Origin: Candidatus Heimdallarchaeota archaeon B3_Heim
GTDB taxonomy: Archaea > Asgardarchaeota > Heimdallarchaeia > Hodarchaeales > Hodarchaeaceae
Assembly (NCBI GenBank): GCA_003144275.1
Contig: NJBF01000020.1
Location: 30,001-62,000, forward strand
DNA: 32,000 nucleotides
Direction: 5' to 3'
The translations under genes and the position numbers were made by a program. Positions 3,159 to 28,113 of the stretch are shown here, piece by piece. The stretch's first letter is position 1. Each line of letters starts with the position of its first letter. The notes beneath the pieces are model-generated. The model saw only the letters and a program-made list of their open reading frames with translations. It did not search any database and was not told the origin of the DNA.

Positions 3159-4649
3159 ATGAATGAAAAGAATTTTGAGTTAACTGGGGAAAATCTCACC
3201 ATAGATGAATTATATGAAATAATGAAACAAAATTTTGAAATTAAACTATCAGGAAGTGCTCAAGACAAAATAAATCGATCTGCTCAAATCGTCCAAGCTA
3301 TTTTAGCTGATAAAAAAAGCATTTACGGAATTACTACTGGATTTGGCTATCTTCAGAAGGTTAATATATCCTTAAATGACACAAAGAAATTACAGGAGAA
3401 TTTGATTATTAGTCATTCGGCAGGGGTCGGACCTGAATTATCCCATGATATAGTTAGAGGAATGATGGCGTTAAAAATTAATAAATTTGCTCGTGGCCAT
3501 TCTGGAATACGTTTAGCTGTAGTGGATTATCTATTAAAGCTATTAAATAATAATATCATTCCTTCAGTCCCTTCAAAAGGTAGCTTGGGCGCAAGTGGTG
3601 ATTTAGCTCCTTTAGCTCATCTATCGTTGGTTTTATTAGGAAAAGGGCATGCTTATCATAACGGAAAGAAGATGACTGGTGAAGATGCCTTAAAACGTGT
3701 TAATTTGAAACCACTTGAACTTATTGCAAAAGAAGGATTAGCTCTACTCAATGGAACTCAAGCAATGACTTCTGTTGCCGCTTCATCCATTAAGAATGCA
3801 TATTATCTAGTTAAAATTGCAAACATTGCTACAGCACTGAGTATGGAGATCCATGCGGGTAATTTAGACAGTTTACATCCTTTGATTCATCAAGCTCGGC
3901 CACACAGTGGGCAAATAGAAGCAGCTAGAATGATCTTAGGTTATTTAGAGGGAAGTAAGTGTACACAAAAATTAATTGGTAGACAAGATGCATACTCAAT
4001 TCGTTGTGCCCCAGCGGTTCATGGAGCAGTGCACGACACAATCGATCACGCTAAACGAGTAACCGAAATTGAAATGAACGCATCTACGGACAACCCGTTA
4101 TTGTTCTCTGTCGATCAAGTTTATAGTGGCGGTAATTTTCACGGAGAACCGATTGCTTTCATATTGGATTTCCTAGGAATTGCTCTAACAGAATTAGGTA
4201 ACATTTCAGAGAGAAGAATCGAGAGATTGTTGAATCCAACGTTAAGTAATCTACCTGCGTTTTTAACCTCTAATACTGGACTTAATTCTGGACTTATGAT
4301 TGCTCAATATACTGCTGTTGCATTAACCTCTGAAAACAGACAGTTATCTACACCAGCCTCTATTGATACTACCTCAGTGTCTGCAAATCAAGAAGATCAT
4401 GTCAGTATGGGTATGAACGCGGCGAATAAACTCATAAAAATTATAGATAATCTGCAATATATTGTAGGTATCGAACTACTATGCGCAGGTCAAGCGATTG
4501 ATTTAGCCGATATTAAAGATAAACTTTCACCTCAATGTAAAGAAGTATTCAGAACTATTAGATCACATGTTTCTTATATGGACCAAGATCGCGAACTGGC
4601 TCCTGATATTGAACAGTGTGCTTCATTAATTAAAGAATTTAAATTATAG
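3159..4649 (+). CDS. hutH: Histidine ammonia-lyase
   Basis: YGITTGFG; SH specificity motif (LIISHSAG); MIO-forming ASG in GSLGASGDLAPL; KEGLALLNGT; QDAYSIRC; GGNFHGEP; SANQEDHVSMG. Confidence 0.96.
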   Translation: MNEKNFELTGENLTIDELYEIMKQNFEIKLSGSAQDKINRSAQIVQAILADKKSIYGITTGFGYLQKVNISLNDTKKLQENLIISHSAGVGPELSHDIVRGMMALKINKFARGHSGIRLAVVDYLLKLLNNNIIPSVPSKGSLGASGDLAPLAHLSLVLLGKGHAYHNGKKMTGEDALKRVNLKPLELIAKEGLALLNGTQAMTSVAASSIKNAYYLVKIANIATALSMEIHAGNLDSLHPLIHQARPHSGQIEAARMILGYLEGSKCTQKLIGRQDAYSIRCAPAVHGAVHDTIDHAKRVTEIEMNASTDNPLLFSVDQVYSGGNFHGEPIAFILDFLGIALTELGNISERRIERLLNPTLSNLPAFLTSNTGLNSGLMIAQYTAVALTSENRQLSTPASIDTTSVSANQEDHVSMGMNAANKLIKIIDNLQYIVGIELLCAGQAIDLADIKDKLSPQCKEVFRTIRSHVSYMDQDRELAPDIEQCASLIKEFKL

Positions 4650-5831
4650 ATTATCTTTGAAGTAATTGTAAAAACCCAAGAGAGCGTAAATGGCTGTTCC
4701 TTTCCAAAGAACTGACTCATCTACATTAAATTTCGGATGATGGTGAGGAAAATCTATGCCCTTCTCCTTATTCTGAATCCCTAGGGTAATGAAAGCGCCT
4801 TTTGCCACTTGAAGATAAAATGAAAAATCCTCTCCTACCATAGTTTGCTCCATATTTTTAATTTGGCCAACAGGTTGAAGAAGTGGTCTGATATTGTCAA
4901 CAATCTTAGCATCGTTTATAACTGCAGGATAAGCCATAGGATCGAACTCTACTATTCCTTTACATCTCCAAGCAGCACAATAACCCTCCACAATCTGTTC
5001 AATCCGCTGAATTAAATATCTCCTGACTTCAGGATTCATTGTTCTGAGAGTTCCACGAATGATTGCCTGATTGGGGATAATATTATGGGCATCACTGGCC
5101 ATTAGGACTGGAAGAGATAATACAATTTGTTCAAAAGGATCTACTTCACGGGGAATGAGTTTTTGTAATGCATTGTAGATATCAACTAAGACACTTGTAG
5201 GATCAATTGTTTGCTGGGGAGCCGCGGCATGACCCCCTTTCCCAATAATTTTAATCTCAAATCGATCAGATGAGGCAAAAACAGGCCCTTTGCGAATTCC
5301 GATTATACCTGAAGGCAATGGAATCCAAACATGAAGTCCAAATATTGTATCAACATCTTTAAGGTGATCTTCTTCGACAATTTTTTTCGCTCCCCCACCT
5401 CCCTCTTCTGCAGGTTGAAAGAAGAATTTAACGATTCCAGAAAGTTGCTCACGATATTTATTTATCAGTTTAGCAGCACCCAGCAAGCAAGCTGTGTGTG
5501 CATCATGACCACAAGCATGCATTTTGCCTTCTATCTGACTCATATAATCTGTTATATTTTCTTCACGGATATTCAGAGCATCTATATCAGCTCGTAATGC
5601 TGTTGTATTTCCTTTCGATGACCCTTCAATAACGGCAAGAACTCCTGTTCCAGCAATACGTTGTGATTGTAAGCCTATCTTTCTTAATTCGCTTTCGATA
5701 AATTTTGCCGTATTTTCTTCTTCATATAGAGTTTCTGGATGCATATGGATATATTGGCGAGTTTTTATGATATATGATTCAAGTTCCTTTGCCTCTTGAA
5801 TGATCTTTTGCGTTAGTTCTTCCTTATCCAT
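4644..5831 (-). CDS. M20D-family amidohydrolase (N-acyl-amino acid amidohydrolase/hippuricase-like)
   Basis: HMHPE, LRADIDAL, MHACGHDAH, FQPAEEG, GKGGHAA, GEDFSFY and HHP motifs; GGTGA RBS upstream. Confidence 0.92.
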   Translation of the reverse strand: MDKEELTQKIIQEAKELESYIIKTRQYIHMHPETLYEEENTAKFIESELRKIGLQSQRIAGTGVLAVIEGSSKGNTTALRADIDALNIREENITDYMSQIEGKMHACGHDAHTACLLGAAKLINKYREQLSGIVKFFFQPAEEGGGGAKKIVEEDHLKDVDTIFGLHVWIPLPSGIIGIRKGPVFASSDRFEIKIIGKGGHAAAPQQTIDPTSVLVDIYNALQKLIPREVDPFEQIVLSLPVLMASDAHNIIPNQAIIRGTLRTMNPEVRRYLIQRIEQIVEGYCAAWRCKGIVEFDPMAYPAVINDAKIVDNIRPLLQPVGQIKNMEQTMVGEDFSFYLQVAKGAFITLGIQNKEKGIDFPHHHPKFNVDESVLWKGTAIYALLGFYNYFKDNL

Positions 5832-6061
5832 GATTCATACTCACCTGATTCTTTTCTAATGACTAATCTTATCGTTTAGAGAAGATTTTAATGCCTTAAT
5901 GACATTTTCTCTTCTAGAAAATCTGTGATGGTAATTTTAAAAATGAAATCAGACCTCAAACAGAAAAACCAACCTCTACTGATAATTTTATTTGAACAAT
6001 TCAGTGGTCACAAAACTTAAACAATTCAGAAAAAACCATTATGCAATAAGAAATTTTTTGA

Positions 6062-7405
6062 GTGGATAGAATAATGGATTTACCAAAAGCTCTTGAGCTA
6101 ATAGAAGAAAAAGAGGTTAAAGAACTAGCTTTACAATTCACTGATTTATCAGGAATATTACACACACTCTGGGTACCTACTCAAGCTATATCTCAGATAA
6201 TGAAAGATGGGATTCATACTGATGGTTCCTCGCTAAGTAAAATGGTAGATGTAAGTAAGAGTGATGTTAAATTAGTTCCTGATTTGAACAGTTTTGTGAT
6301 TTTCCCTCCTCAATTATTTGATTATAATGTCGCACGAGTAGTTTGCGACATTTATGAGCCCGATTCAAACGTACCATTTAGTTTAGACCCAAGATATATA
6401 CTAAGAAAAGTTCTTACCTCTCTCCAAGATCAATTAGGTCCAAAAGTAATAGGAATTGCCTCTAGTGAAATAGAATTTTTCCTGTTTGAAGAAGGGGAAG
6501 ATCAACATCTTCAACTCATTGACAACGCAGGCTACTTAGCCTCACCTCCTAAAGATCGTGGAACGCAGCTACGTCATAATATCACTGAAGCGTTAAGAAA
6601 TATTGGGATTATTATAGAGAAGCATCACCATGAAGTTCCCGCAGGCAAAAGTGAGTTTAACGTTCCATATTCCGAAGCCCTACAAATGGTAGATACAATA
6701 TATTTAATCAAGTTCATTACTAAGCTGATGGCGAACCGATTTGGGTTCATTGCTTCATTTATGCCAAAACCCTTTCATGGAGAATATGGTGCTGGACTTC
6801 ATACTCATATTAATCTTCGAGATCAAGAAAAAGAGCTAAATTTATTTTCCAATTCAAGTGAAAACACAAAATTAAGCCCATTAGCCCGAAATTTCCTAGC
6901 GGGAATATTAATCCATGCGAAAGGCCTTGCATTATTAACAAATCCATCTGTTAATTCATATAAACGGCTTGTACCAGGCTGGGAAGCCCCTGTATACATA
7001 TCTTGGGCTAACTATAATCGATCAACTCTTATCAGAATTCCCCCTGGTAGTAAAAAAGCGGCTCGTTTGGAATATCGTCCCACTGATGGATCATGCAATT
7101 TTTATCTCGCTTACGCAGGACTATTTTCATCTGGTTTGAATGGGGTTAAATTACAGTTGAAGCCCCCTACTCCAGTTGAAGAGAATATTTATGACATGTC
7201 TACAGACGAACGTAAAAAAAGGGGAATTAAAGTGCTTCCGGGAAATCTTGGAGAAGCAATTTTCGAATTTTCAAAGGATAGATTTTTTGAAGATGTCCTT
7301 GGCTCGAAATTTGTTCAAAAATACGTTACACTAAAAATGAGTGAATGGAAGGAATTTAGTGTTTATGTTCATAAATGGGAAAGAGACAGATATATCGATG
7401 TTTAA
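6062..7405 (+). CDS. glnA: Glutamine synthetase type I family protein (GS or gamma-glutamyl ligase)
   Basis: DGSS, EIEFFLF, HHEV, FMPKP, YKRLVPGWEAP, NRSTLIRIP, RLEYRP; C-terminal 'VHKWERDRY'. Confidence 0.85.
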   Translation: MDRIMDLPKALELIEEKEVKELALQFTDLSGILHTLWVPTQAISQIMKDGIHTDGSSLSKMVDVSKSDVKLVPDLNSFVIFPPQLFDYNVARVVCDIYEPDSNVPFSLDPRYILRKVLTSLQDQLGPKVIGIASSEIEFFLFEEGEDQHLQLIDNAGYLASPPKDRGTQLRHNITEALRNIGIIIEKHHHEVPAGKSEFNVPYSEALQMVDTIYLIKFITKLMANRFGFIASFMPKPFHGEYGAGLHTHINLRDQEKELNLFSNSSENTKLSPLARNFLAGILIHAKGLALLTNPSVNSYKRLVPGWEAPVYISWANYNRSTLIRIPPGSKKAARLEYRPTDGSCNFYLAYAGLFSSGLNGVKLQLKPPTPVEENIYDMSTDERKKRGIKVLPGNLGEAIFEFSKDRFFEDVLGSKFVQKYVTLKMSEWKEFSVYVHKWERDRYIDV

Positions 7406-7427
7406 AATACTACCAGTGGGAATATAA

Positions 7428-8714
7428 ATGGTAATACAAGCAGACTTTGTCATAATTAATGCAAATGAACTAGTGACATTAGCTGGTTCAAGCGAAACTC
7501 CTCGTACTAAAGAAAAGATGAAAGACCTTGGTATTGTGAATAATGGAGCGGTAGCTGTTAAAGATGGAAAAATAGTTGCTGTAGGCAAAACAAATGAAGT
7601 ATTAAGGCAACTAGATACAGGATATGAAGTTATTGATGCCACAAATAAACTAGTAACACCAGGATTGATAGATCCTCATGTTCATTTAGTTTTTGCAGGA
7701 ACCAGAGAAGACGAATTAGAAAAAATGGCTGTATTAGGAATCTCATATTTAGAAATAAAAGAACAGGGAGGAGGAATGAATAAGTCCCTCAAATTGACAT
7801 CTGAGACCAGTTTTGAGGATCAGATCAGAATAACCTCCAAAATATTGGATAAAATGCTCATTCACGGGACAACAACGATTGAAGCTAAAAGCGGATATGA
7901 AATGACTTTCCATGGTGAGATTAAACAACTGGAAATAATTAAATCACTTAACGAATCCCATCCACTGGATCTAGTTCCCACTTTTCTTGCTCAAGGTATC
8001 CCACCAGAATATGAGGATAATTCTGATTTATTAGTGAGTGAAATTGCCGAAAAATGGATTCCTGAGATCGCAAAAAGAAATCTAGCAGAATATGCAGATG
8101 TTTTTTGTGAAAAAGGGTATTATAATCTTGAACAAACTCGTAGAATCCTACTCTCTGCTCGAAAACATGGCTTGAAACTACGGAATCATTGTGATTGGTT
8201 GGCTCATAGCGGAGGTACTCGCTTATCTGCTGAAATAGGGGATATCGTATCCGTCGATCATTTAATTTGGACTCCTCTAGAAGAAGTAGATGCCCTTCAA
8301 GGACAAAAGACGATAATTGTATTTTTACCAACATCCCCGTTTTGTTATGTGAATAAATACGCACCTGCGCGCGAAATAATCGATCGTGGAATGCCTGTTG
8401 CTTTAGCAACAGACGTGAGTGCGGCAAACATGTGCGAATCTATGCAAATGATGATGACGCTTGCAGTACTTCGTATGGAGATGACTGCAGCTGAAGCCCT
8501 AACTGCTTCGACTATAAATGCAGCCCATTCAATAAATCGAGCTCATGAAATTGGTTCATTAGAAGTAGGAAAAAAAGCAGATATCGTCCTTTTTGATGCT
8601 CCTAATCATCGATTCTTTGCATATAATTACGGAATTAACCTTGTTGAGAAAGTTCTCAAAGATGGGAATTTGGTGGTTGTTAGAGGAAGAAGAACTGATT
8701 CAGATATATCATAA
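7428..8714 (+). CDS. hutI: Imidazolonepropionase (HutI)-like metal-dependent amidohydrolase with substituted substrate-binding residues
   Basis: PGLIDPHVHLVFAGTRE, SYLEIKEQGGG, GTTTIEAKSGY, DVFCEKG, DHL, ALATD, GSLEVGKKAD. It aligns end to end with recalled Bacillus-type HutI, but several specificity motifs differ (see findings). Confidence 0.78.
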   Translation: MVIQADFVIINANELVTLAGSSETPRTKEKMKDLGIVNNGAVAVKDGKIVAVGKTNEVLRQLDTGYEVIDATNKLVTPGLIDPHVHLVFAGTREDELEKMAVLGISYLEIKEQGGGMNKSLKLTSETSFEDQIRITSKILDKMLIHGTTTIEAKSGYEMTFHGEIKQLEIIKSLNESHPLDLVPTFLAQGIPPEYEDNSDLLVSEIAEKWIPEIAKRNLAEYADVFCEKGYYNLEQTRRILLSARKHGLKLRNHCDWLAHSGGTRLSAEIGDIVSVDHLIWTPLEEVDALQGQKTIIVFLPTSPFCYVNKYAPAREIIDRGMPVALATDVSAANMCESMQMMMTLAVLRMEMTAAEALTASTINAAHSINRAHEIGSLEVGKKADIVLFDAPNHRFFAYNYGINLVEKVLKDGNLVVVRGRRTDSDIS

Positions 8715-8771: not shown

Positions 8772-11700
8772 TTATTTTTCCTTTAGATTTTTAGATCTTT
8801 TCAGAATTACAAAGCCTACCAACAACGACCACAACATGAAATCCCACTGAAAACCTGAGCTATTCTTAGTTTTCTCTGTTACCGTTCCTATGTTAAAAAC
8901 AAACGAAATTGAGGCCGAATTACCCGCAAGATCATAAACGGTTACCCGTATAGTGTAGGAGCCTGTTTCATAATTGTCTGGAGTAAGATCTTTTTCTATG
9001 TAATATCCTGAACTTGTGATATTTATTTTTGGACCACTAAAACCAATTTTATTACCATTGAGAGTCATTTCTGCGGAAAATTGATCGATACCCGATCCAT
9101 CATCGCGGAACCAGAATATAATTTCAGTAGTTTCCACTAGGTAGGAGTTATTTTCCATTCCCCTCATCCCTATGACGGGTGCTGTTTCATCGGTAATTAT
9201 TTCAAAAGATACAACTTCAGAGTTCCATGTAAAGTTGAAAAGATGCACTCCTTGAGTTAGTGGGTAAGTAAAATTATACCAACCATTTAAACCAGTTTCT
9301 GGTATTTCTGTTGTTATATCGGACTCAACACCGAATGTAGAATTACGATAAGATCCAGAAATGCTTACTGAATTATTTGGTAAATAATTCGTCGAAGCGT
9401 GAAGCGAAACGGTTACAACATCATCTGTCACTTCATAAAACCCGTATAATTGGGATTCAGCTGAAATATAAGCTAGAATATCTGATACCAGAAAATTATT
9501 GAATAATGTGTTTGTATATTCAAACCCTTCATTTATCTCATTATTATAACCACGATTGGTAATAAAATTACTTCCCGAAACAACAACAACCCTTCCACCT
9601 AGGGGATAATCATAGGATGCCATAACAACATTCTCCCGTTGGTTCAGATAAGCAAGGGGGGTTGCGGTATTTGTCAACTCAAAATAGGATCCAGATGCAT
9701 CAAAATACTCTGTTGATGTTCCAATGGAATTGAAATGGGTTAATTGCGCAGGAGTAGTACCAAAAGACGGTGATAATTCACTTGTCTGTATACCCCATTT
9801 TTTCATCATATTCTCCATTCCTATTGGGGTGGTATAAGGTGTGAGTATTAGCCCACCTCCACTACTAACGAATGAAGTGATTGCGGATTGTTCAGACGCT
9901 GATAGAACAGTTAAAGTATCTTCGGATATTACTAAATCAATTGCTGATAAATATTCCCACGTTTGAGTTGTACGATTATCGGCTGCAAACCATAGGACAT
10001 CATAGTTAGAAAGTGCTTGAGGAGTAATCTCAGATTTATTTTCATTGAGAACTATTCCTTGCTTACTTAGATCTATTTTTAGATCCAGAAATTTTCCCTT
10101 GGTATTATATGAAAACACTGGTCTATTCCCGGTATAGAATAATACTTTTTGTTTAGCAGGCTCCACATTTATAGTGAAGGAAATCCGTTGGATTTCTGTC
10201 GAATTAACTTGAAACAAAATATCCCCAGAATAAAGCCCAAGTGGCTCATTATCTGCAACATTCACCTCGAGAACAATATCATGTGAGAAGTATTCAGATA
10301 ATTTACTTGTTGCTAAATCATTGTGGCTACTCTTTAAGGACTCAGAATCATTGACCCACTGTTGTTCTTTCAACGTAATAATTGAAGAAAGATTTCCAGT
10401 TGTCTGGATGGACACGTTCACAGTTTCTGATGATGTGAACGAAAATAATTCAGAAAAGTAGGAACCTTGAAGCACGTTAGGAAATTTCATGAAACCTAAT
10501 TCTTTAGGATTGACGGTTCCTGTTATTATATGATTCCCAACTCTTGGAGCAGCCAAAAGATATTCGTACGCGGCTGAGGCATTAACCTGACCCGCGCCTT
10601 GTGCGTTTAGATCCACTCCAATATCTGTAGCAGTAGCCATAAGTGCAGCTTTTATCGTTCCTGGGTTTACATCAAGATTATGTTCTCTCATTGCTCCAAG
10701 AAGAATCGCTGAGACACCTGCAACATGAGGAGCGGAAAATGATGTACCTTGAGGGGTACCATATCCACCTTGCACAGCGGGAGTTGGAACAGCAGTACCT
10801 GGTGCAATCACATCAGGAGAAACTGCATCTGTCCTCCAGATGGGACCACGACTGCTATAAGTTGCCATTGCTTGCATTCCTTCATTTGTTGCTCCAACAG
10901 TAATTTCATCAACAAAATTGTCAGCAGAGATTGTATACATAGTTCCCCCATCATTACCAGCGGAATGTACAAAAATTACTCCTTGTTTTGTTGCTTGACG
11001 AATTGTAGCTAATCTTAGTTGATATCCAGGATATAAAATCAAGTCCCAATAAGCTTCTTCGCCATCTGAAATCCCATAACTCCGATTAATGACATCTACA
11101 CCATTTTCTATTGCCCAATTAATCGCAGCAATTTCACCTATGAGAGTCATATCTAACAAATCTTCTGGGCCTTCATCAACATCGGCATCTAAAATCCACG
11201 ATTCAGTAGCTATTCCTTGGTTACTCACTGTTTGAATTCCACCACCAGCAGCAATTCCAGCGACCCATGTACCATGAGATCCCGCAATATTATCCAAATC
11301 TTCCTCATTACCATAAGTAGTATTAACAAATCCCTCTGCTGCCTTGATACGGGATGTACCATTTGCAAAACTAAAATCAGGATGACTAGCATTTATACCT
11401 TCATCAATAATACAGATTGTCGTCCCTTGTCCCTTATAACCTAGCTCCCATAATTTATCTACACCAATAACTTGAGCTGATACTAATGATTGAACAGATG
11501 GATTAACAACTGAATATTGATCGTGTCGAGAATTGGGGATAAAATTACCCTTATTACCCGAAGTAATAGGATAAAAGTTCTGATATGCCAGATATGCATT
11601 ATCTCTTACTATTGAAGCTAATTCGGTGGAAGTAGCTTTGATTGTAACCCCTAATAGTCCGTTAAAATTAAGCCCTGTATCATATCTAGATATAAAACTA

Positions 11701-11930
11701 GTATATTCTGATGATTTTTCGAAGAAAATCAAATAGATACTCTCTTCAGTCCCTTGAATTTCTAGAACCTCTTTTTCTAAAACCTCTACCTCTTTGGAAA
11801 TACTTGAAATATCAATCATTTGCTCAGAAGATGAGATATTCAAAATAATATTAGATTTACTCGTTAAAATCACAAAAAGTAATATGAAGATTGGTGTAAA
11901 TTTTAGTAACTTGCTATACCTTGTCATCAA
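8772..11930 (-). CDS. Secreted, membrane-anchored S8 (subtilisin-like) serine protease with Ig-like and GATase-like (DUF4350-type) domains; MBTPS1/site-1-protease-like architecture
   Basis: Signal peptide; triad D176 (IIDEG), H219 (HGTWVAG), S397 (GTSFSAP); oxyanion SAGNDG; many N-x-S/T sequons; C-terminal hydrophobic segment with a basic tail. Confidence 0.9.
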   Translation of the reverse strand: MMTRYSKLLKFTPIFILLFVILTSKSNIILNISSSEQMIDISSISKEVEVLEKEVLEIQGTEESIYLIFFEKSSEYTSFISRYDTGLNFNGLLGVTIKATSTELASIVRDNAYLAYQNFYPITSGNKGNFIPNSRHDQYSVVNPSVQSLVSAQVIGVDKLWELGYKGQGTTICIIDEGINASHPDFSFANGTSRIKAAEGFVNTTYGNEEDLDNIAGSHGTWVAGIAAGGGIQTVSNQGIATESWILDADVDEGPEDLLDMTLIGEIAAINWAIENGVDVINRSYGISDGEEAYWDLILYPGYQLRLATIRQATKQGVIFVHSAGNDGGTMYTISADNFVDEITVGATNEGMQAMATYSSRGPIWRTDAVSPDVIAPGTAVPTPAVQGGYGTPQGTSFSAPHVAGVSAILLGAMREHNLDVNPGTIKAALMATATDIGVDLNAQGAGQVNASAAYEYLLAAPRVGNHIITGTVNPKELGFMKFPNVLQGSYFSELFSFTSSETVNVSIQTTGNLSSIITLKEQQWVNDSESLKSSHNDLATSKLSEYFSHDIVLEVNVADNEPLGLYSGDILFQVNSTEIQRISFTINVEPAKQKVLFYTGNRPVFSYNTKGKFLDLKIDLSKQGIVLNENKSEITPQALSNYDVLWFAADNRTTQTWEYLSAIDLVISEDTLTVLSASEQSAITSFVSSGGGLILTPYTTPIGMENMMKKWGIQTSELSPSFGTTPAQLTHFNSIGTSTEYFDASGSYFELTNTATPLAYLNQRENVVMASYDYPLGGRVVVVSGSNFITNRGYNNEINEGFEYTNTLFNNFLVSDILAYISAESQLYGFYEVTDDVVTVSLHASTNYLPNNSVSISGSYRNSTFGVESDITTEIPETGLNGWYNFTYPLTQGVHLFNFTWNSEVVSFEIITDETAPVIGMRGMENNSYLVETTEIIFWFRDDGSGIDQFSAEMTLNGNKIGFSGPKINITSSGYYIEKDLTPDNYETGSYTIRVTVYDLAGNSASISFVFNIGTVTEKTKNSSGFQWDFMLWSLLVGFVILKRSKNLKEK

Positions 11931-12431: not shown

Positions 12432-13151
12432 TTGGCTTTACTGACAAACATATTAACAAAATGGTTTAAAAAACCAGCTGAACCAACAGAAAAGGAAATG
12501 ATTAAAGATTTCATTCAAGAACTTGACTCTGTCCTAATATCTATGGAAGAAATGACAGAAGATATGACAAACGGTTTTAGCGACCAGGTAATTCAACGAC
12601 GACCACTCTCGACAAAACTCATGGCTTATTTACCGAAATTTATGCAATCTAAAAATACTCGATCCCAAAATGAGAAATTAATTGAATTGAAGAATACAAA
12701 ACAGAAAATGCGTACATTAAGGGGAACATTATCTAAAATTGATGAATCTGTTGATTCAATGGATCTCCATGCTGCTCCCCTTGAGGGAGAAGAGGTCGGG
12801 AGTAGAATTTACGAGCTTGCCTATCCTGGAGAGACAATAACCTCTTCAAAAGTGAGAACATTAGAGGAAAGGCTGCAAATGCTTGAAAATTCGTTTTTAG
12901 CTTCAATGGACCAAATAAATGGGCAGATGAATCAGATATCATCAAATTTGCTAACACTAACTCAAAGACTTGAGGAACAAGGGGTAAAAATAGACCGTAT
13001 TGATGAAAAAATTACCGATGTTCAATCAAAATTACAAAAAATCCAATCTACTTTGGCAAAAATATCTCGGAAACTGACTCAAAACAGAACACTATTAGCA
13101 CTTTTGGTTGGGTCTGTAATTGCTCTCGTGATTGTCATAGTCATCCTTTGA
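12432..13151 (+). CDS. Tail-anchored Qc-SNARE-like coiled-coil protein
   Basis: Heptad layers are centred on Q183 (RLEEQGVKIDRI); a single TM helix (221-239) sits at the extreme C-terminus; the N-terminus is helical. TTG start after a GAGG RBS. Confidence 0.75.
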   Translation: MALLTNILTKWFKKPAEPTEKEMIKDFIQELDSVLISMEEMTEDMTNGFSDQVIQRRPLSTKLMAYLPKFMQSKNTRSQNEKLIELKNTKQKMRTLRGTLSKIDESVDSMDLHAAPLEGEEVGSRIYELAYPGETITSSKVRTLEERLQMLENSFLASMDQINGQMNQISSNLLTLTQRLEEQGVKIDRIDEKITDVQSKLQKIQSTLAKISRKLTQNRTLLALLVGSVIALVIVIVIL

Positions 13152-13288
13152 GCGTAAAAGAATACTGAAAATGTTAGTTAAAATGAGACCCCAGAAAATA
13201 TAAGAAAAAGAATATAAGGAATAAGGAAAATAAGGATTGTTGAGTGGAAGAATGAATAGAAGGTTAAACAGAATTAGGTGAAGACTGG

Positions 13289-13762
13289 ATGCAACAAAGA
13301 GACGAAATACACCGCGAGTTAACTCGTCTATTAAAAAGTGATACATCAATTAAAGTGACTTTACTAGGTGATAGAACAGGTTTAACGATTGCTAGAGCCT
13401 CAAGACTATTAGTATCAGCAACTATGGGAGCATTTGATCTTGAAAGTATTGGAGCGATTGCTTCTGCGGTGTTTTGCGGCGCAGCAGAACAAGGAAGTGC
13501 CTTAACTCTTGGGGAGCTTGGTATTATGTTGGCTGAATTCACTGATGGCAAAATATTGACCGCTCAAAGTGGAGAAAGAGGAGTTTTAGTAGTAGTCGCA
13601 GAATCAGATGCTCAATTGGGGTTGATCCGAATGCGGATGAAAGAATCATCAGAGTCGTTAGCCTCACTCATGGATAGATTAATAGAGCCATCTGCCGTTA
13701 AAATGAAGAAACCCGAATCTCAATCAATAATGGCCGCACTTAAAGAACTCGAAAACTTTTAA
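13289..13762 (+). CDS. Roadblock/LC7 (MglB/LAMTOR2-like) domain protein
   Basis: 'TLLGDRTGLTIA...ESIGAIASAVFCGAAEQGSALTLGELGIMLAEFTDGKILTAQSGERGVLVVVAESDAQLGLIRMRMKESSESL' matches the Roadblock pattern (DxxGL.I, xxaAxxs, L.VVa.xxA.LGL.r..m). AGGTGA RBS. Confidence 0.88.
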   Translation: MQQRDEIHRELTRLLKSDTSIKVTLLGDRTGLTIARASRLLVSATMGAFDLESIGAIASAVFCGAAEQGSALTLGELGIMLAEFTDGKILTAQSGERGVLVVVAESDAQLGLIRMRMKESSESLASLMDRLIEPSAVKMKKPESQSIMAALKELENF

Positions 13763-13775
13763 CCGTCCAACGATT

Positions 13776-13787
13776 ACTTTTTTTTTC
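13776..13787 (+). terminator. Oligo-T putative archaeal terminator after the Roadblock gene
   Basis: Run of 9 T about 15 nt after the stop codon at 13762. Confidence 0.4.
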
Positions 13788-13857: not shown

Positions 13858-14469
13858 GTGCCTTATTCCCAACTAGATGACGTTATTTTGAAGTTAACTG
13901 ATGAAGTTACGGTTCAAGTCCTAAATATTTTATTAGAAGAAAGAGAAATTATTGATGAAGACATTGTGAATATTCTAAATGAGGGATTGGATCAAGGGAA
14001 TCAAGAGACTGAGGCCCCTGAAGAAAACAATATTCCGAGGATTGCTCTCAAAGAAGTCAGAAAATCACTATATAAATTAAATGAAAGATCTCTCGCAAGG
14101 TACCGACGAGTACGTGATAAAGAAACGGGTTATTTTGTATATTACTGGTCACCTATTTGGGAAAGGATTCGAGACTTAATTGTCAGTCGTCGGAAGCAAA
14201 CAATAAAGAAATTGAAGCAACGCTTAGACTATGAACAACGAAACCTTCTTTATGTGTGTGAAGAAGGACATACACCAGTTACTTTTTCTGATGCATTTGA
14301 ATTTGGATTTTTATGCACCGTCTGTGGACAAGAACTTGCTCAAAAGGAGAACGCAGAGACAATTGCAATTCTACAAACCAAGATAACCGAGCTAAAAAAG
14401 ATTCTCAAAACAGGTTTAGAAGAAATAGAGGGGATTGAAGAGAGAATGGAAAAGGCTGTCAACAGCTAA
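13858..14469 (+). CDS. tfe: Transcription initiation factor E (TFE/TFIIE-alpha)
   Basis: Winged HTH 'EVRKSLYKL...LARYRRVRDKETGYFVYYW'; Zn ribbon 'YVCEEGH...FSDAFEFGFLCTVCG'. GTG start. Confidence 0.9.
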   Translation: MPYSQLDDVILKLTDEVTVQVLNILLEEREIIDEDIVNILNEGLDQGNQETEAPEENNIPRIALKEVRKSLYKLNERSLARYRRVRDKETGYFVYYWSPIWERIRDLIVSRRKQTIKKLKQRLDYEQRNLLYVCEEGHTPVTFSDAFEFGFLCTVCGQELAQKENAETIAILQTKITELKKILKTGLEEIEGIEERMEKAVNS

Positions 14470-17969: not shown

Positions 17970-18707
17970 TTGAATGAAAAAGAATTTTTCCGATTAGTAG
18001 GAAACGAAATAAGACGTGATATCCTTCGATCGGTCGCTCAAGAGCCAAAATATCTGTTTCAACTTTCTAAAGAGCTCAAGAGATCTCAACAATCACTACA
18101 AAGGCACCTCCAGTGCTTGTTGGAAAATGGTTGGTTGTCTCAAGAATTAGTAGAGGGACCTCATGGTCCAGCTCGCAAGCTATATCAAATAGCTAAGAAT
18201 CTATCGGTAAGAATTACGTTAAGTCAGCATTCGTTTGCTATAGACGTATTTGACATTCAAATCGGAAGAATTTCTGACCCCTTGGACGATTTCCAAACTC
18301 ATTTGAATGAAATAGGTAAAGATCTTTCATTGACACTTTCTCAAGGAATTCAAAAAGATCATCAGAATTATGCTGTCCAAATTCGTACCCTTAATACAAT
18401 TCTTGATAAACTAGGGTCAATAGAAAATTTCATTCTGAGCAAAAAGCTTACTGTCACAGGTCAATTAAATGAGACAATTTCGATGAAACTAGAAGGTGAC
18501 GATCATCGAAAAGATCGTGAATTGGCGTATACAATTTTTAGTAGCTCTGCCCCAATAAAAATAGATGTGATTCAAAAAGAAATAAAAACAAAGCGAACTG
18601 AGCTTCTAGCTTCCCTTAAACGACTGAATGAAAAGAATCTTTTACCCGAACGAGGAGTAGATTTAATGCAGAAGCTAGAAGTCACATTGAGTAGCCAAAC
18701 GGAGTGA
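17970..18707 (+). CDS. ArsR-like winged-HTH transcriptional regulator (COG1777, Phr/HSR1-like), probable heat-shock operon regulator
   Basis: 'VGNEIRRDIL...PKYLFQLSKEL...SLQRHLQCLLENGWL...GPARKLYQI'; lies 3 nt upstream of grpE. Confidence 0.72.
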   Translation: MNEKEFFRLVGNEIRRDILRSVAQEPKYLFQLSKELKRSQQSLQRHLQCLLENGWLSQELVEGPHGPARKLYQIAKNLSVRITLSQHSFAIDVFDIQIGRISDPLDDFQTHLNEIGKDLSLTLSQGIQKDHQNYAVQIRTLNTILDKLGSIENFILSKKLTVTGQLNETISMKLEGDDHRKDRELAYTIFSSSAPIKIDVIQKEIKTKRTELLASLKRLNEKNLLPERGVDLMQKLEVTLSSQTE

Positions 18708-18710
18708 TAA

Positions 18711-19346
18711 ATGCCAATGAAAGAACATACTCCACAGAATACAAAAAATAATTCAAATTTCTATGACATTGATGAACAAATTAAAGAATCTGACTCAAAA
18801 AAAGTCAAGATACCAACGTACAGTAAATCCATGGATAGCAAATCATCTCAGCAAAGCAAACAAGGGGAGCTAGAAAGCCAAATTGAGAAGCTTAAAGAAG
18901 AGTTAGTACAAAAGGAGAAGACTAATCAAAAAGATAAAGAGCGTTTTCTTCGTGCATTAGCTGATTATGAAAATCTTGAGAAGCGAACAAAAGCAGAAAG
19001 ATCAAGAATATTAAAAAATGCTAATGCTAATCTTCTGACGACATTTCTTGAACTAGCAGATACGTTAGAAAAAGCAAAATCAAGTTTTACTGATTCCTCG
19101 AATGCTAATACTGAATTAAAAGAGGGTTTTCTAGCAATTGAAAGACAGTTTTCAAGTATCTTGAACAATGCAGGAGTTGAAAGACTTGAATGTCTGGGGA
19201 CAAAATTCGATCCAGCTTTCCATGAAGCTGTGTTCGTAAGAAAAGATCCAGGAGAGGGAGAAGACATAATTTTGGAAGAAGTTCAGGCTGGTTACACACT
19301 GAACACTACCTTACTACGACCTAGTAAAGTGATAATTGCAAAATAA
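18711..19346 (+). CDS. grpE: Nucleotide exchange factor GrpE
   Basis: 'LRALADYENLEKR', 'FDPAFHEAV', 'QAGYTLNTTLLRPSKVIIAK'. Confidence 0.96.
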   Translation: MPMKEHTPQNTKNNSNFYDIDEQIKESDSKKVKIPTYSKSMDSKSSQQSKQGELESQIEKLKEELVQKEKTNQKDKERFLRALADYENLEKRTKAERSRILKNANANLLTTFLELADTLEKAKSSFTDSSNANTELKEGFLAIERQFSSILNNAGVERLECLGTKFDPAFHEAVFVRKDPGEGEDIILEEVQAGYTLNTTLLRPSKVIIAK

Positions 19347-19367
19347 TAATATTAAGGTGAACACAAG

Positions 19368-21200
19368 ATGCCTAGACCAATTGGTATAGATTTAGGAACA
19401 ACTTTTTCTGCCATAGCCACAATGGAAGGTGGAAAAGCAAAGATTATTCCCAATGCGGAAGGTCAGCGAATTACTCCCTCTGTAGTATCCATTTCGAAAG
19501 AGGGTGAACGAGTAGTTGGAATACAAGCTAAAAGACAAGCTGTTTCCAACCATGAGAGGACAGTTAGATCCATAAAAAGAGAGATGGGAACTAAGTATAC
19601 AGTGACTATTGATAGAAAGGTCTATAAACCTCCTGAAATAAGTGCAATGATTCTACAAAAACTAAAACGAGATGCTGAGGCTTATTTGGGTGAAACTATT
19701 ACCCAAGCAGTAATTACCGTTCCAGCATATTTTTCTGATTCCCAACGTCAAGCTACAAAGGATGCTGGTAAAATTGCGGGGTTAGAGGTTCTAAGAATTA
19801 TTAATGAACCCACAAGTGCTTCTTTAGCTTATGGAATGGACAAAGAAGAAGAATCGACAATTCTTGTTTTTGACTTGGGTGGTGGAACATTTGATGTTTC
19901 AATATTAGAATTATCCGAGGGTGTATTCGAGGTAAAAGCAACATCAGGTAATAATAGACTTGGGGGAGACGATTTTGATCAACGAATTATTGATTGGATG
20001 ATTGAAGAGTTTAAAAAACAAACTGGGTTGGATCTTTCGAAAGATCCAATGGCATTACAACGATTGAGAGATGCAGCAGAACAAGCAAAAATTGAGTTAT
20101 CACAAAAAACTTCCTCAGATATCAATTTACCATATGTTTATGCTGATAACACTGGACCTAAACATCTGAATCTTTCTCTTACAAGGTCAAAATTTGAAAT
20201 TATGATCGCTGATCTCATTGAAAAAGCTATGGGTCCTACTCGACAAGCCTTAGCCGATGCAAAACTTAAGCCTTCCGAAATTAATAAGATTTTACTCGTT
20301 GGTGGTTCTACTCGTGTTCCTGCCGTACAATCAGCATTACGTAACTATTTCAATAAAGAACTAACAAAAGAACTCAATCCTGATGAATGTGTAGCTCTGG
20401 GAGCAGCGATACAAGCCGCAATTATAACTGGTGAAGTAAAAGATGTTTTGTTGCTCGATGTTACTCCTTTGTCTTTAGGGATAGAAACTCTAGGTGGAGT
20501 ATTTACCAGGTTAATTGAAAGAAACACTACTATTCCAACTCATAAGAGTCAAATCTTCTCTACCGCAGCTGATAATCAACCATCAGTTGAAATTCACGTA
20601 TTACAAGGAGAAAGGAAAATGGCCACAGGGAATATAACCCTAGGCAAATTCCAATTGGTCGGAATACCTCCCGCTCCTAGAGGCGTTCCACAAATTGAGG
20701 TAAGCTTTGATATTGATGCCAATGGAATTGTAAATGTATCAGCAAAAGATCTTGGAACTGGAAATGAGCAGAAAATAACCATTAAGAGTGATAGTGGCCT
20801 TTCAGAAACAGATTTCAAGAGAATGGCTGAGGAAGCAGAAAAATACGAGGAAGAAGATAATAAAAGATTGGAAGAAGCTGAAGCACGAAATAAAGCAGAC
20901 TCACTTGTCTATCAAGTTGAAAAGATGATTAAGGATTTAGGTGAACAAGTGGATGCTACCACAAAAAGCAACGCAGAGAGTACGATTGAATCACTTAAAT
21001 CATCTTTACAGAGCGGAAATATTCCAGATGTCATTAAAAAGAGTGAAGATCTAGAGAAAATTGCACATGAATTAGCACAGAAACTTTATGCTCAACAAGC
21101 TCCGCAAGGAGCACCAGGTGCAGGTTTTCAAGGGGCTCCATCGGGTCAAGATGACTCCGAAGTTGTAGACGTTGATTATGAGATTGTCGATGAAGAGTAA
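19368..21200 (+). CDS. dnaK: Chaperone DnaK (Hsp70)
   Basis: [42 protein letters not shown]. It lacks the N-terminal-domain insert, as in archaeal and Gram-positive DnaK. Confidence 0.99.
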
Positions 21201-21232
21201 TTGAAATCGTAAGAATTTATCAGGTGATATGA

Positions 21233-22381
21233 CTGAGTAAAAACAAAAAAGATTACTATGAGGTTCTTGGTGTCCAAAGGGACGCAGATGTTAAAGATAT
21301 CAAGAAAGCCTTTCGAAAGTTAGCTCGGAAGTATCATCCTGATATGAACCCTGATGATCCAAGCGCAGAAGAGAAGTTTAAACAAGTAGCTGAAGCATTC
21401 GAAGTATTATCTGATAATGAAAAACGGCCTTTGTATGATCGATATGGTCATGAAGGCTTATCAGGCGCTTCATTCAGAGATTTTTCAGGCATGGGGCTAG
21501 ATGATCTTTTTGGTGGGTTTGGTATATTTGAAAATATCTTCAATGCCTTTGGAGGCGGAACTCAAGCTAGGACTTCCCGTTCTCGTGCGAGACGCGGTCA
21601 AGATGTAAGGCTTAACATTGATCTCTCTTTCGATGAGGCAATGAAGGGAATAAAGAAGTCAATTAAAGTCCCTAACTGGGCACAATGTCCTGTATGCCAT
21701 GGCAATAGAATTAAAAAAGGCGAATCACTCATTAAGTGTAGTACCTGTGGTGGAGTAGGAGAAGTGCGTCAGGTTCAGAGAACGGCCTTTGGACAGATGA
21801 TAAATATTACCACTTGCCCAAAATGCCGTGGAGAAGGTGAGAAGTTGAAAAAAGGGACAGAATGTGAGACTTGCAACGGAGTTGGCAAAGTTAAGCAAAC
21901 TAGAACTGTTGAAGCTCATGTCCCTGCTGGGGTTGATACAGGAATGCGTGTGGTAGTTCAAGGAGAGGGCAGACCTGGTGAGTTGGGAGGACCTTCTGGG
22001 GATTTATATTTGGTAGTAAACATATCCCCTCATCCTTTCTTCCAAAGAAATGGTGCGGAAATTCTTCTGGAATATCCGATTAGTTTTCTTGACGCCGTAT
22101 TAGGGACAAAACTTACAATTCCTACAATTAACGGAGACGAGAAAGTTACAATCAAACCAGGTACTGAATCTGGGAAAATAATTACCCTTAGAAAAAAAGG
22201 CGCCCCTAATCCTAATAGGTCTGGTCGTGGCGATATGCACATCGGAATTACTGTAAAATTTCCTAGTAAATTAGAAAAAAGTGTAAAACAAACATTACAG
22301 AAACTTCAAGAAGAAGACGAGGCAAAATATGTATTTAGAAATAATCCTGGATTAGCTAAATACTTAGGTTCCCAAAAATAA
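21233..22381 (+). CDS. dnaJ: Chaperone DnaJ (class A); start revised upstream of the ORF track call, probably CTG
   Basis: The frame stays open upstream of ATG 21344 and encodes the J-domain start (L/M)[36 protein letters not shown]. An in-frame TGA lies at 21230-21232. A G/F region and four CxxCxGxG-type repeats follow. Confidence 0.93.
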
Positions 22382-25424: not shown

Positions 25425-25780
25425 GCCTTTCTACTCCTTAGTTTACCCAGAATATTCTTGAAATTTCCTCTAACTCGAAAGATATTAGCATAATCGTCAA
25501 AGATGAACAGATAGGATTCCAGTAATAATGTTGATTATTGAAAATACGAAACAGATGTCAAAGATTTCTGGTGTGTTATTTTATGGAAATTTCATTCTCC
25601 ACTTATTTTAGATCGAAATATAGAATATCATCTAGATAATATCCGTATTGATAGAGGACATGAGATATGAATATTTGATGAAAATTAGATCCCTTTAACC
25701 CAAGGATCATTGTCATTATTTGAAAATCACACAGATTGAAAGTGAATTTTACCTTGAGTTCGTCTATTAGTAATACAACG

Positions 25781-27163
25781 ATGATGGAGTATTTTCGTCC
25801 AAGAGGAAAAATCGTTTGCCTTGGAGATAATATGAAATCTGAACTCGAACTGATAAAGAACATTCTAGACATAAACAATGATAAGAGAGTACCAGTTCTT
25901 CTGCTCAGTTCTTCCACTGATCTTAGTGAATATGCAGATCAAGTAGTTATCTTTGATTCGGATTCAACAATTGCTCAAGTTCATAATCTTTTGAACTCCT
26001 CATTTTTATTTTTTTTGTTTAATTCTTCTGAACATGGAATACTGAGAATTTTAGGTACAATCCTAGCCTCAATTGAATACAGAGGCACGATCCCTATTTT
26101 TATCGATACTGGTAGAGGTCTCCCTCCAGATCAAAAGAAAAATCTAGGTGAATGTTATTTTCACTTCGATTTATTAGAGGATATCAATCAAAAGAGTTTT
26201 TCAATATTTCTAGAAAACATAATATCTGTGTTATCACCTGTTTCTGGGCTTGGGATATCATTTTCAGATTTAATTCAAATTTTTGGAAAATCTAAAAGTC
26301 TTTTTTATGGAATTTCACAATCAACCCTCTTGGAACAAGTTCTAGAAGATTTAGTTGATCAAATTGGGGGAAAGCTTGTCCAAACATTGCCTGAAGAACT
26401 TGAAAATCTTGAAGCTATCTTTATCTCTGTTATTTCAGGAAAATCACTCAGTTTGCAAATTATGAATAAGATAACCTCAAAATTTGCTTCGACATTTGGT
26501 ATGGAATTCAATATCCATTTTTCTAATTCTGTAGAATCTGATCTCCAGGGTTACAAAACGATGGCCATACTTACAGATCTTCACCCAATAAATGAAATTT
26601 TTCCAGTTGCGAATCCCTTTCTAATGTTAGATTTTGATAATGAGACTGAAGACACTTCTGATGAATTATCCTTTTCAAATTCCAAAGAAAAACCATTGAA
26701 AGAAAATGAGGAGGATATGAGATTCCATATTTTGGGTAAAATATTTTCTGAATCTGAGGTTTACATATTTGATGATGGAGGGCTTCCTCTATTTGCTAGT
26801 CACCGTCCAGCTGGGCAAGAAGTTTGTCTATATACTGGATTATTCTCTGCAATTCAATCTATGAGTTCAGATTTAATTGGTCATTCTCCAGACCATCTTA
26901 CTGCGGGGGATAAAGAATGTGTATTTGTGTCACAGAAAGGTCCAAATCAAGTACAACTAAGAGGAGTTGCCATTTGTCAAGGCGGACAGGAAGAAACTGC
27001 TAGAAATGACCTCAAAGTTTCTATGGATTTAGTTCATCGTGTAATGCTACAGGGAGAACCAGAATACGCTATAAATGATAAAATCCAAGGCATTCTTGTT
27101 AAAAGTTTCCAGAAGGGAGAACTATCTAATGGCTTTGCCTTAGCAAAATATCAAGCAAGCTAA
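25781..27163 (+). CDS. Degenerate FtsZ/tubulin-fold protein fused to a C-terminal longin-like domain
   Basis: T7-like 'GLGISFSDL' and an FtsZ C-terminal-domain pattern; no GGGTGTG; acidic linker; longin-like 'VYIFDDGGLPLF...LYTGLFSAIQSMS'. Start placed at the first ATG (the ORF track starts at 25736). Confidence 0.55.
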   Translation: MMEYFRPRGKIVCLGDNMKSELELIKNILDINNDKRVPVLLLSSSTDLSEYADQVVIFDSDSTIAQVHNLLNSSFLFFLFNSSEHGILRILGTILASIEYRGTIPIFIDTGRGLPPDQKKNLGECYFHFDLLEDINQKSFSIFLENIISVLSPVSGLGISFSDLIQIFGKSKSLFYGISQSTLLEQVLEDLVDQIGGKLVQTLPEELENLEAIFISVISGKSLSLQIMNKITSKFASTFGMEFNIHFSNSVESDLQGYKTMAILTDLHPINEIFPVANPFLMLDFDNETEDTSDELSFSNSKEKPLKENEEDMRFHILGKIFSESEVYIFDDGGLPLFASHRPAGQEVCLYTGLFSAIQSMSSDLIGHSPDHLTAGDKECVFVSQKGPNQVQLRGVAICQGGQEETARNDLKVSMDLVHRVMLQGEPEYAINDKIQGILVKSFQKGELSNGFALAKYQAS

Positions 27164-27177
27164 CTTATTTCTACAGA

Positions 27178-27813
27178 TTATTTAGAAATAGGATTAATAG
27201 CTTCATTTGTTTGGTAACGTTCATAAACTTTTTCAACATAACCAAACTCTTCAATTAGTTCATGAATTCTTGTCGATTCAATATAGATTTCAGAGGTCCA
27301 TAAAATCAAGTACGCAGTAATCATAGGCAATTGAGGGGTAACTGATTCCTGTATTTCAAATAGGATCTGTTTACGTAGAGCGAGCTCTGTTTCATACATA
27401 TCAATTATTTCTCGAATGGTATTTTCAGCTTGATCTATAATCTCTAAATCATGAGGCCATTCATTATTATCTTTTACTGCTCGATTTTTCGCTGGTTGAA
27501 GAATATCACAACGAAAGCTCTGTTCTATTTTTCTCATCTCGCGAATTACATCTTTAAAATGAGTTAAATAAGCATTCAATTCGGTGATATGCCTATTGAT
27601 AGATTCTGCGAGATTATAAGCTAGTCTGCCCTGAACGTCATCAAACTTAGTCTTTATTACTTCGGAAAAGACATCTGATCTTTGAGTCAGGTTAAATCGT
27701 GATAAGATATTGAGTACCATGTTTACAGTTCGTAACGACTGGCCTTGAACGGTGGTCCACTTTTTTTGAGAGATTTGTAACCTCTTTTTAAAGACCCGAA
27801 TGCTCTGACTCAT
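27178..27813 (-). CDS. Alpha-helical protein resembling eukaryotic C1orf109/AIRIM (CK2-substrate family)
   Basis: 211 aa; 'KKW...LN', 'FDDVQGRL', 'MYETELALRKQIL' and a late Trp match the recalled family pattern. Confidence 0.5.
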   Translation of the reverse strand: MSQSIRVFKKRLQISQKKWTTVQGQSLRTVNMVLNILSRFNLTQRSDVFSEVIKTKFDDVQGRLAYNLAESINRHITELNAYLTHFKDVIREMRKIEQSFRCDILQPAKNRAVKDNNEWPHDLEIIDQAENTIREIIDMYETELALRKQILFEIQESVTPQLPMITAYLILWTSEIYIESTRIHELIEEFGYVEKVYERYQTNEAINPISK

Positions 27814-27925: not shown

Positions 27926-28113
27926 GATTGAGGCACAAAATAATTCCGTTCTGAAAGACTTACCCAAATGGGACTGATAAGAATAATCAAGAAGAATTAT
28001 TCGAAACAACCGTTGGAGCTGTTCTTCCTGATTCATCGACGCGTGCCTGCTCTGATGCAGGTCTTACCACCTCTCCACAGACATTTAAGGTCTCCGCAGA
28101 ACTCTCGGCGACC
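27926..28113 (-). ncRNA. Predicted TnpB omegaRNA (reRNA) scaffold plus flanking guide
   Basis: Hairpins at 28089-28113, 28046-28061 (CCTGC-N6-GCAGG) and 27981-28002 overlap the tnpB 3' end and run to the right end. The guide would be the host flank AATTATTTTGTGCCTCAATC. Confidence 0.45.

Follow-up and report, generated by a model that had tools for sequence, protein, structure and literature searches.

The prototypic SNARE HPS1 of a Hodarchaeales archaeon: layer pattern, relatives and genomic neighborhood

Gene organization and protein architecture

The window analyzed here, a stretch of 32,000 nucleotides from a Hodarchaeales genome, contains at 12432..13151 on the forward strand an open reading frame with a TTG start, 239 codons and a TGA stop. 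The list of reading frames, the translation and the supplement of Neveu et al. point to it as the gene for HPS1 (PWI47941.1), a tail-anchored prototypic SNARE. The start codon is preceded at a distance of about 11 nt by AGAGG, a Shine-Dalgarno-like element. Downstream by 137 nt, and co-oriented with it, lies a gene for a Roadblock/LC7 protein of the MglB/LAMTOR-like kind (13289..13762, forward strand; Pfam PF03259, 28 bits, cut-off 23). The gene for Transcription factor E alpha (TFE; 13858..14469, forward strand; Pfam PF02002, 43 bits) is the third in this conserved order.

The N-terminal part of the protein, approximately residues 20-130 (12489..12821, forward strand), is helical in the AlphaFold2 model, with helices at residues 20-54, 74-109 and 120-130 and a pLDDT of 76-90 for residues 21-100; this region has previously been predicted to be a probable three-helix bundle (Neveu et al., bioRxiv 10.1101/810531; Bentahar et al., bioRxiv 10.64898/2026.10.19.760048). 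The C-terminal part was the subject of the initial annotation, which had proposed a textbook SNARE motif with a tail anchor in the span 12900-13151, that is, residues 157-239 and the stop codon. The motif itself occupies residues 159-211 (12906..13064, forward strand) and is built of 16 heptad layers, numbered -7 to +8. All the layer residues that had been named were recovered at their positions with a spacing of 3 or 4 throughout: M159, I162, M166, I169, L173, L176 and L180 precede the central Q183, and I187, I190, I194, V197, L201, I204, L208 and I211 follow it. The codon for Q183, the polar zero layer, lies at 12978..12980 on the forward strand, and its assignment rests on the sequence, the alignments and the published crystal structure. 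The motif leads into a basic juxtamembrane linker, SRKLTQNR (residues 212-219; 13065..13088, forward strand), which, depending on whether residue 220 is counted, spans about 8-9 residues up to the transmembrane (TM) helix. The tail anchor that ends the protein (residues 220-239; 13089..13148, forward strand) is uncharged and hydrophobic from residue 220 or 221 onwards and is modeled by AlphaFold2 as a helix at 221-238. As had been noted from the sequence, L221 is placed 38 residues past Q183.

The AlphaFold2 monomer as a whole is all-helical with a mean pLDDT of 70.9; beyond the N-terminal helices it shows helices at residues 138-182, 190-217 and 221-238, with a break at 183-189. Foldseek searches with this model against the PDB and the Swiss-Prot part of the AlphaFold database retrieved only generic helical bundles (E > 0.01, TM-score < 0.4), and neither syntaxin nor Habc domains were among these matches, an outcome that speaks neither for nor against a fold of the Habc kind.

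Identity with the published HPS1

Several lines of evidence make it practically certain that the protein encoded in the window is HPS1 (PWI47941.1), the prototypic SNARE of Candidatus Heimdallarchaeota archaeon B3-JM-08 of the order Hodarchaeales. The sequence of PWI47941.1 is printed twice in the supplement of Neveu et al., and in both of them the stretch from MALLTNILTKWF to VIVIVIL agrees with the window protein wherever the text is legible; the mismatches are machine-reading slips, such as O for Q, which differ between the two copies. The residue numbers used in the papers also coincide with those of the window protein, namely the SNARE region at 159-211, Q183 and F155 (the site of the F155W mutant), and the succession of SNARE, Roadblock and TFE genes on the window is the one described in the supplement of Neveu et al. 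for the B3_Heim contig. The window accordingly derives from the genome of that archaeon or from one almost identical to it. The object is thus an already known protein, which has been both published and structurally characterized; as to whether it belongs to the families of Neveu et al. (cited in the initial annotation as Curr Biol 2020), a question raised there, it is the HPS1 of that study.

HPS1 was published in 2019/2020 (Neveu et al., bioRxiv 10.1101/810531) after a search with profile HMMs of eukaryotic SNAREs that was limited to tail-anchored proteins, and the construct used for its SNARE region comprised residues 159-211. In vitro, this region enters mixed complexes with Syx1, SNAP-25 and Syb2, in which it takes the place of the R, Qb or Qc helix (Neveu et al.). 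It was crystallized in 2026 (Bentahar et al., bioRxiv 10.64898/2026.10.19.760048), and the same study found the motif to be helical and extremely stable, with melting above 90 C, and measured by SEC-MALS a mass of 34 kDa, corresponding to a tetramer; the mutant tagged for UV absorption was F155W. The 2.4 A crystal structure, for which syntaxin-6 served as the molecular-replacement model, is a parallel, fourfold-symmetric homotetrameric four-helix bundle of 16 layers, wherein the zero layer is formed by the four hydrated side chains of Q183 (Bentahar et al.). When expressed in human cells, the full-length protein is inserted into ER membranes, and this targeting depends on the tail anchor (Bentahar et al.).

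Conservation and uniqueness of the layer pattern

A word-index search recovered 67 clusters of relatives with 55-97% identity, nearly all of them 239 aa in length, and the 28 close relatives in alignment A1 show no substitution at Q183 or in the linker KLTQNRTLLALL. More distant relatives, with 23-39% identity, were found by scanning 83 Heimdallarchaeia genomes. Across the resulting 103 family sequences hydrophobic residues are retained at all 15 layers apart from A, T or C at layers +3, +4 and +6, and the zero layer is occupied by Q in 96 of the sequences and by H in 6.

The occurrence of such a pattern was gauged in the window's own genome (3.95 Mb, 94% complete), using all 6164 open frames of at least 80 aa. 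Fifteen layers drawn from L, I, V, M and F around a central Q or R are present in just two of these frames, HPS1 and one other, the latter being a V/L/F-rich frame that has neither a coiled coil nor a tail anchor. With a more permissive core alphabet 12 frames match, and a terminal TM segment follows the pattern in HPS1 alone. The retention of the layers in 103 relatives, together with the uniqueness in the genome of their combination with a tail anchor, places the pattern beyond chance. The central proposal of the initial annotation, an archaeal protein that has a SNARE motif and a tail anchor, is accordingly borne out by these relatives and by the identity of the protein with HPS1.

Sequence similarity to canonical SNAREs and to other coiled coils

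The epithet "textbook" overstates the strength of the sequence signal, for none of the three Pfam models tested exceeds its curated cut-off on HPS1. PF05739 (SNARE) scores 19.3 bits against a cut-off of 26.8, PF00957 (Synaptobrevin) 19.2 against 26.4, and PF12352 (V-SNARE_C) 19.5 against 27.1. When the genome is scanned in all six frames, HPS1 is the best match for both PF05739 (23.2 bits) and PF00957 (23.8 bits), but these values too are below the cut-offs, and of the 14 control prokaryotes 10-11 likewise have sub-threshold matches to the two models. The HAP1_N and YwqH-like families give better whole-protein E-values than the SNARE models, through the N-terminal region of HPS1, and none of the generic coiled-coil families (XhlA-like, FlaC-like, DUF1664) has a match to HPS1 that reaches its Pfam cut-off. 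When 20 family members are considered, PF05739 is matched at E <= 0.01 in 11 of them, which is the most for any family, with DUF1664 tied.

Searches of the PDB, in a set without the HPS1 crystal structure, point to SNAREs in a consistent register. The best match for the single sequence is VAMP2 with its TM segment (3HD7 chain A; E 0.002), in an alignment that runs without gaps for 83 residues through the motif, linker and TM helix and sets Q183 on R56. VAMP2 differs from HPS1 in being an R-SNARE with R at the zero layer and in having no N-terminal helical domain, where HPS1 has Q and such a domain, and the E-value is marginal. With the family profile, the best natural match is syntaxin-6 (2nps_D; E 4.8e-5), again in a gapless alignment whose register pairs Q with Q, although two designed coiled coils are ranked higher. 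The initial annotation had aligned HPS1 to a syntaxin-6 string; that string is genuine, being present in 2nps_D, HMMER places it on the family profile in the very register that had been claimed, and the gapless pairing over 34 residues holds with 12 identities.

The background of coiled coils is nonetheless considerable. A profile of the motif and TM helix searched against 1.84 billion representative sequences retrieves about 20 representatives of the family, followed by hundreds of repetitive coiled coils with E-values down to 1e-29. Ten of the matches that cover the tail comprise a single canonical SNARE (PF05739, 53 bits), the others being generic coiled coils or XhlA-like proteins. Comparison of the family with this canonical SNARE by hhalign yields a probability of 96% over 78 gapless columns, in which Q is set on Q and the N-R ahead of the TM helix on its counterpart. 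Coiled-coil composition inflates the E-values and profile scores by which a SNARE would be told from any other coiled coil, and it is the published crystal structure and biochemistry that carry the SNARE assignment; the evidence from the register is consistent with it, the evidence from sequence by itself being weak. Generic tail-anchored coiled coils of the XhlA-like, FlaC-like and DUF1664 types share with HPS1 the heptad-rich helices and sometimes a terminal TM helix. Unlike HPS1, they have neither a fixed register of 16 layers with a conserved central polar residue nor a crystallographic or biochemical link to SNAREs.

Relationship to the Qc-SNAREs

The initial annotation went further and labeled the motif as that of a Qc-SNARE, which would make HPS1 a true member of that type, akin to syntaxin-6 and Tlg1, that pairs with Qa, Qb and R partners still undetected. 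Some of the similarities are indeed of the kind which such a relationship would produce: syntaxin-6 is the human SNARE nearest to HPS1, at 20-28% identity (Neveu et al.), it is the top natural PDB match of the family profile with the above 12 identities in the gapless pairing, and it worked as the model for molecular replacement. It also resembles HPS1 in its size and in possessing an N-terminal helical domain. The label does not hold, however, when set against the trees, the biochemistry and the genome. In the published phylogenies approximately 50 Heimdall SNAREs, mostly with one gene per genome, constitute a single clade basal to Qa, Qb, Qc and R (Bentahar et al.), and the archaeal sequences had earlier likewise been placed outside the four eukaryotic types (Neveu et al.). 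Whereas syntaxin-6 acts in a heteromeric QabcR complex, HPS1 is homotetrameric, belongs to a branch outside the Qc clade and promiscuously replaces the R, Qb or Qc helix.

The sequence comparisons too are indifferent to the subtype, as the single sequence best matches an R-SNARE, VAMP2, and the family profile aligns equally well to the canonical SNARE retrieved above, which has a DQG...NR tail. We take this tail to resemble that of syntaxin 5, a Qa-SNARE. The genome, furthermore, has a single copy of the gene and no partner SNAREs: the six-frame scan of the 94% complete assembly gave no second credible match to PF05739 or PF00957, and none of the other frames among the 6164 of at least 80 aa combines the layer pattern with a tail anchor. 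Hence, we consider the Qc reading to be largely refuted and give it a very low probability.

The Roadblock-TFE neighborhood and the origin of the gene

No oligo-T tract is present in the SNARE-Roadblock spacer (13152-13288, 137 nt), and a T9 tract at 13778..13786 on the forward strand, past the Roadblock gene, is a candidate archaeal oligo-T terminator; this arrangement, read from the sequence, fits a co-transcription of HPS1 with the Roadblock gene, which we regard as probable.

The order SNARE-Roadblock-TFE recurs in all 18 loci of the Hodarchaeales genus g1 that reach far enough. In a genome of the second Hodarchaeales family (G070, family f2), whose SNARE shares 37% identity, the gene next after that of the SNARE is likewise the Roadblock gene, and the contig ends before any TFE gene could show. 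The order was not seen at the loci examined in the genome G069 or in the families f3, f5 and f6, and the adjacency of the Roadblock gene is thus confined to Hodarchaeales. The adjacent protein is a Hodarchaeales-specific paralogue, with at least 54% identity within the families f1 and f2; genomes of these families carry in addition a second Roadblock paralogue at about 43%, and the other families have only relatives at 32-40%, with or without a SNARE. Its conservation is far stronger than that of its neighbor, the adjacent Roadblock showing 85-99% identity as against 57-97% for the SNARE.

The Roadblock fold is known as a platform for small GTPases. One could hence envisage that HPS1 and the Roadblock protein form one transcription unit whose second product would bind or regulate the first, be it as a GTPase-gated fusion module or as the split forerunner of the regulation seen in longin-type SNAREs. 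We hold this to be an improbable proposal. The other families with a SNARE, and G069, lack the adjacency, TFE and other genes are equally syntenic, and the link between SNARE and Roadblock may therefore be a mere matter of inherited gene order; the adjacency itself had already been depicted (Fig. S2.2 of Neveu et al.).

The same synteny bears on whether the gene is archaeal at all. SNAREs are otherwise eukaryotic, and Legionellales have acquired theirs by transfer, so that contamination of the bin with eukaryotic DNA or a recent transfer from a eukaryote might be entertained for HPS1. The gene is, however, flanked by archaeal genes (TFE, polyprenyl synthase and an S8 protease) in an order which is the same in some 20 independent genomes and which is found on long contigs and closed chromosomes. 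Its G+C content is like that of the surroundings, and the family makes up a clade of its own whose members diverge down to about 25% identity within Heimdallarchaeia. A eukaryotic source, to which we attach a vanishingly small probability, is rejected on account of this archaeal synteny.

Phyletic distribution within Heimdallarchaeia

The HPS family is present in 37 of the 83 Heimdallarchaeia genomes and in five of the seven families of the class: f1 (19 of 21 genomes), f2 (2 of 2), f3 (1 of 1), f5 (3 of 3) and f6 (11 of 12). It was not found in the scanned genomes of f4 (0 of 31) and f7 (0 of 12). This pattern of five families with and two without the gene agrees with the published confinement of the family to subgroups of Heimdallarchaeia (Bentahar et al.). 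In both f1 genomes without a match, the contig ends at or inside the neighboring Roadblock gene, and the HPS gene is therefore probably unassembled rather than absent.

The other members are built like HPS1. HPS2 (OLS22354.1) of Heimdallarchaeota LC_2 and the approximately 50 other Heimdall SNAREs share with it the N-terminal helices, the 16 layers with a polar zero layer, a linker of the T-x-N-R type and the tail anchor, and there is usually one gene per genome. The more distant families, with about 25-30% identity to HPS1, differ in having no Roadblock neighbor. Some members of the HPS family have H at the zero layer. A tandem pair of HPS genes occurs in G069. Weak second SNARE-like matches were also obtained by tblastn near the HPS gene in family f5; one that was inspected (at locus L051) proved to be the tail, a coiled coil, of a 544-aa protein that is unrelated and has no tail anchor, and it was discarded.

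Discussion

Taken with the published structure, the above observations make it highly probable that HPS1 is a tail-anchored SNARE, comprising an N-terminal helical domain, a 53-residue motif and a TM helix, which would act by a mechanism along the following lines. The protein would be inserted into the archaeal membrane by a GET-like pathway, and copies residing on apposed membranes could then zipper from the N- to the C-terminus into the tetramer, thereby pulling the bilayers together. Such zippering might drive the fusion of internal vesicles or of membrane protrusions, after which an AAA ATPase of the Cdc48 type would presumably recycle the bundle. For the fusogenic role in particular we see the chances as slightly better than even.

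The principal competitor of a fusogenic SNARE is a tail-anchored scaffold or tether, which would form cis homotetramers within one membrane and be non-fusogenic, its likeness to SNAREs reflecting either ancestry without the function or convergence. No fusion activity of HPS1 has been reported, be it in vitro or in vivo, and its complex is not disassembled by murine NSF. Four identical helices, moreover, provide no asymmetry between cis and trans, and no SM proteins, tethers or coats are described from Asgard genomes in the literature. Our own searches for Sec1/Munc18 gave no match in the genome with HPS1 and none in the control genomes either; those for the SNAP family did give matches in it, but equally in 10 of 14 control genomes, two of them over the cut-off, so that neither search is informative. 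To this may be added that none of the SNARE models is matched above its cut-off and that generic coiled-coil families appear among the same matches.

Against a mere scaffold speak the 16 layers, the buried polar zero layer and the spindle-shaped core volume, all of which resemble those of eukaryotic SNARE complexes, as well as the distances between motif, linker and TM helix, which match those of VAMP2 without a gap. HPS1 enters complexes with neuronal SNAREs, the zero layer stays polar throughout nearly all the relatives (96 with Q and 6 with H among 103), and vesicle-like structures have been reported in cultured Heimdallarchaeia. Since the symmetric tetramer has no built-in bias towards trans assembly, we retain the scaffold as a live though distinctly less likely explanation than fusogenic SNARE action.

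The interest of HPS1 lies in its being at present the strongest candidate for a membrane-fusion protein that predates eukaryotes, and it bears directly on the origin of the endomembrane system in the archaeal ancestor of eukaryotes. This significance has already been claimed, and in part tested, in two papers (Neveu et al.; Bentahar et al.). What the present analysis adds is an independent check of the uniqueness of the motif in its genome and of its conservation over about 100 relatives, along with the findings that the Qc label does not hold and that the Roadblock neighbor is a paralogue restricted to Hodarchaeales. It further adds the observation that in some HPS relatives the Gln of the zero layer is replaced by His.

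Conserved and variable positions of the SNARE

In the tail-anchored prototypic Heimdall SNARE HPS1 (window 12432-13151, + strand), the juxtamembrane motif T-Q-N-R-T-L-L (window 13065-13100) shows no variation among the 28 close relatives of alignment A1. It aligns with S-N-R-S-L-M in residues about 265-283 of P0283, a canonical SNARE that matches PF05739 at 53 bits; this stretch of P0283 resembles the tail of syntaxin-5/Sed5.

At the zero layer, occupied by Q183 in HPS1, histidine takes the place of glutamine in 6 of the 103 sequences of the family set, some of these six being redundant, with contexts such as LEEHGMK, LGEHGVK and MDEHGVV. These orthologues are encoded at L040:580-1287 (- strand), L043:69-707 (+ strand) and L044:1480-2193 (- strand), with P0152 and P0154 as further examples. 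The text of Bentahar et al. (2026; bioRxiv 10.64898/2026.10.19.760048) calls the zero-layer glutamines conserved and leaves histidine unmentioned.

Copy number and the edges of the locus

One related genome, G069, carries a tandem pair of SNARE-like genes (loci L041 and L053; G069:C473:2990-4440, - strand) with 31-34% identity to HPS1, one of which has a divergent linker with AMVGKK replacing KLTQNR. A Roadblock/LC7 gene adjoins HPS1 downstream; in G069 the Roadblock paralogue lies on a different contig from the pair. The two duplications cited by Bentahar et al. (10.64898/2026.10.19.760048) may include this pair. The SNARE gene was not found in two genomes of the genus to which the window belongs, G051 and G053; since their contigs break off shortly ahead of the Roadblock gene or within it (G051:C155:79-549; G053:C100:7278-7613), it is probably unassembled rather than absent.

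The upstream edge of the locus is variable, because the position held in the window by the gene of a 1052-aa S8 subtilase that has a TM segment at its C terminus (8772-11930, - strand) is occupied by such a gene in only some related loci, while in others an amidohydrolase paralogue lies directly upstream of the SNARE gene in the opposite orientation. The window also contains, at 3159-8714, a cluster of genes for an aromatic amino-acid (histidine) ammonia-lyase, an M20 peptidase, a glutamine synthetase-type protein and a HutI-like amidohydrolase.

Other genes of the window

A bacterial-type Hsp70 operon at 17970-22381 (+ strand) comprises an ArsR-type HTH gene and, downstream of it, grpE, dnaK and dnaJ. 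A Pfam search at E <= 1e-5 gave no match for a 475-aa ORF at 25736-27163 (+ strand). The 211-aa protein encoded at 27178-27813 (- strand) scores 42 bits on PF15011 (C1orf109-like ribosome-biogenesis protein), for which the Pfam cut-off is 27. This family is otherwise known only from eukaryotes, and the protein is a possible eukaryotic signature protein. A TnpB/IS605 OrfB-type gene at 27987-29267 (- strand) shows matches to the HTH_OrfB_IS605, OrfB_IS605 and Cas12f1-like TNB domains.
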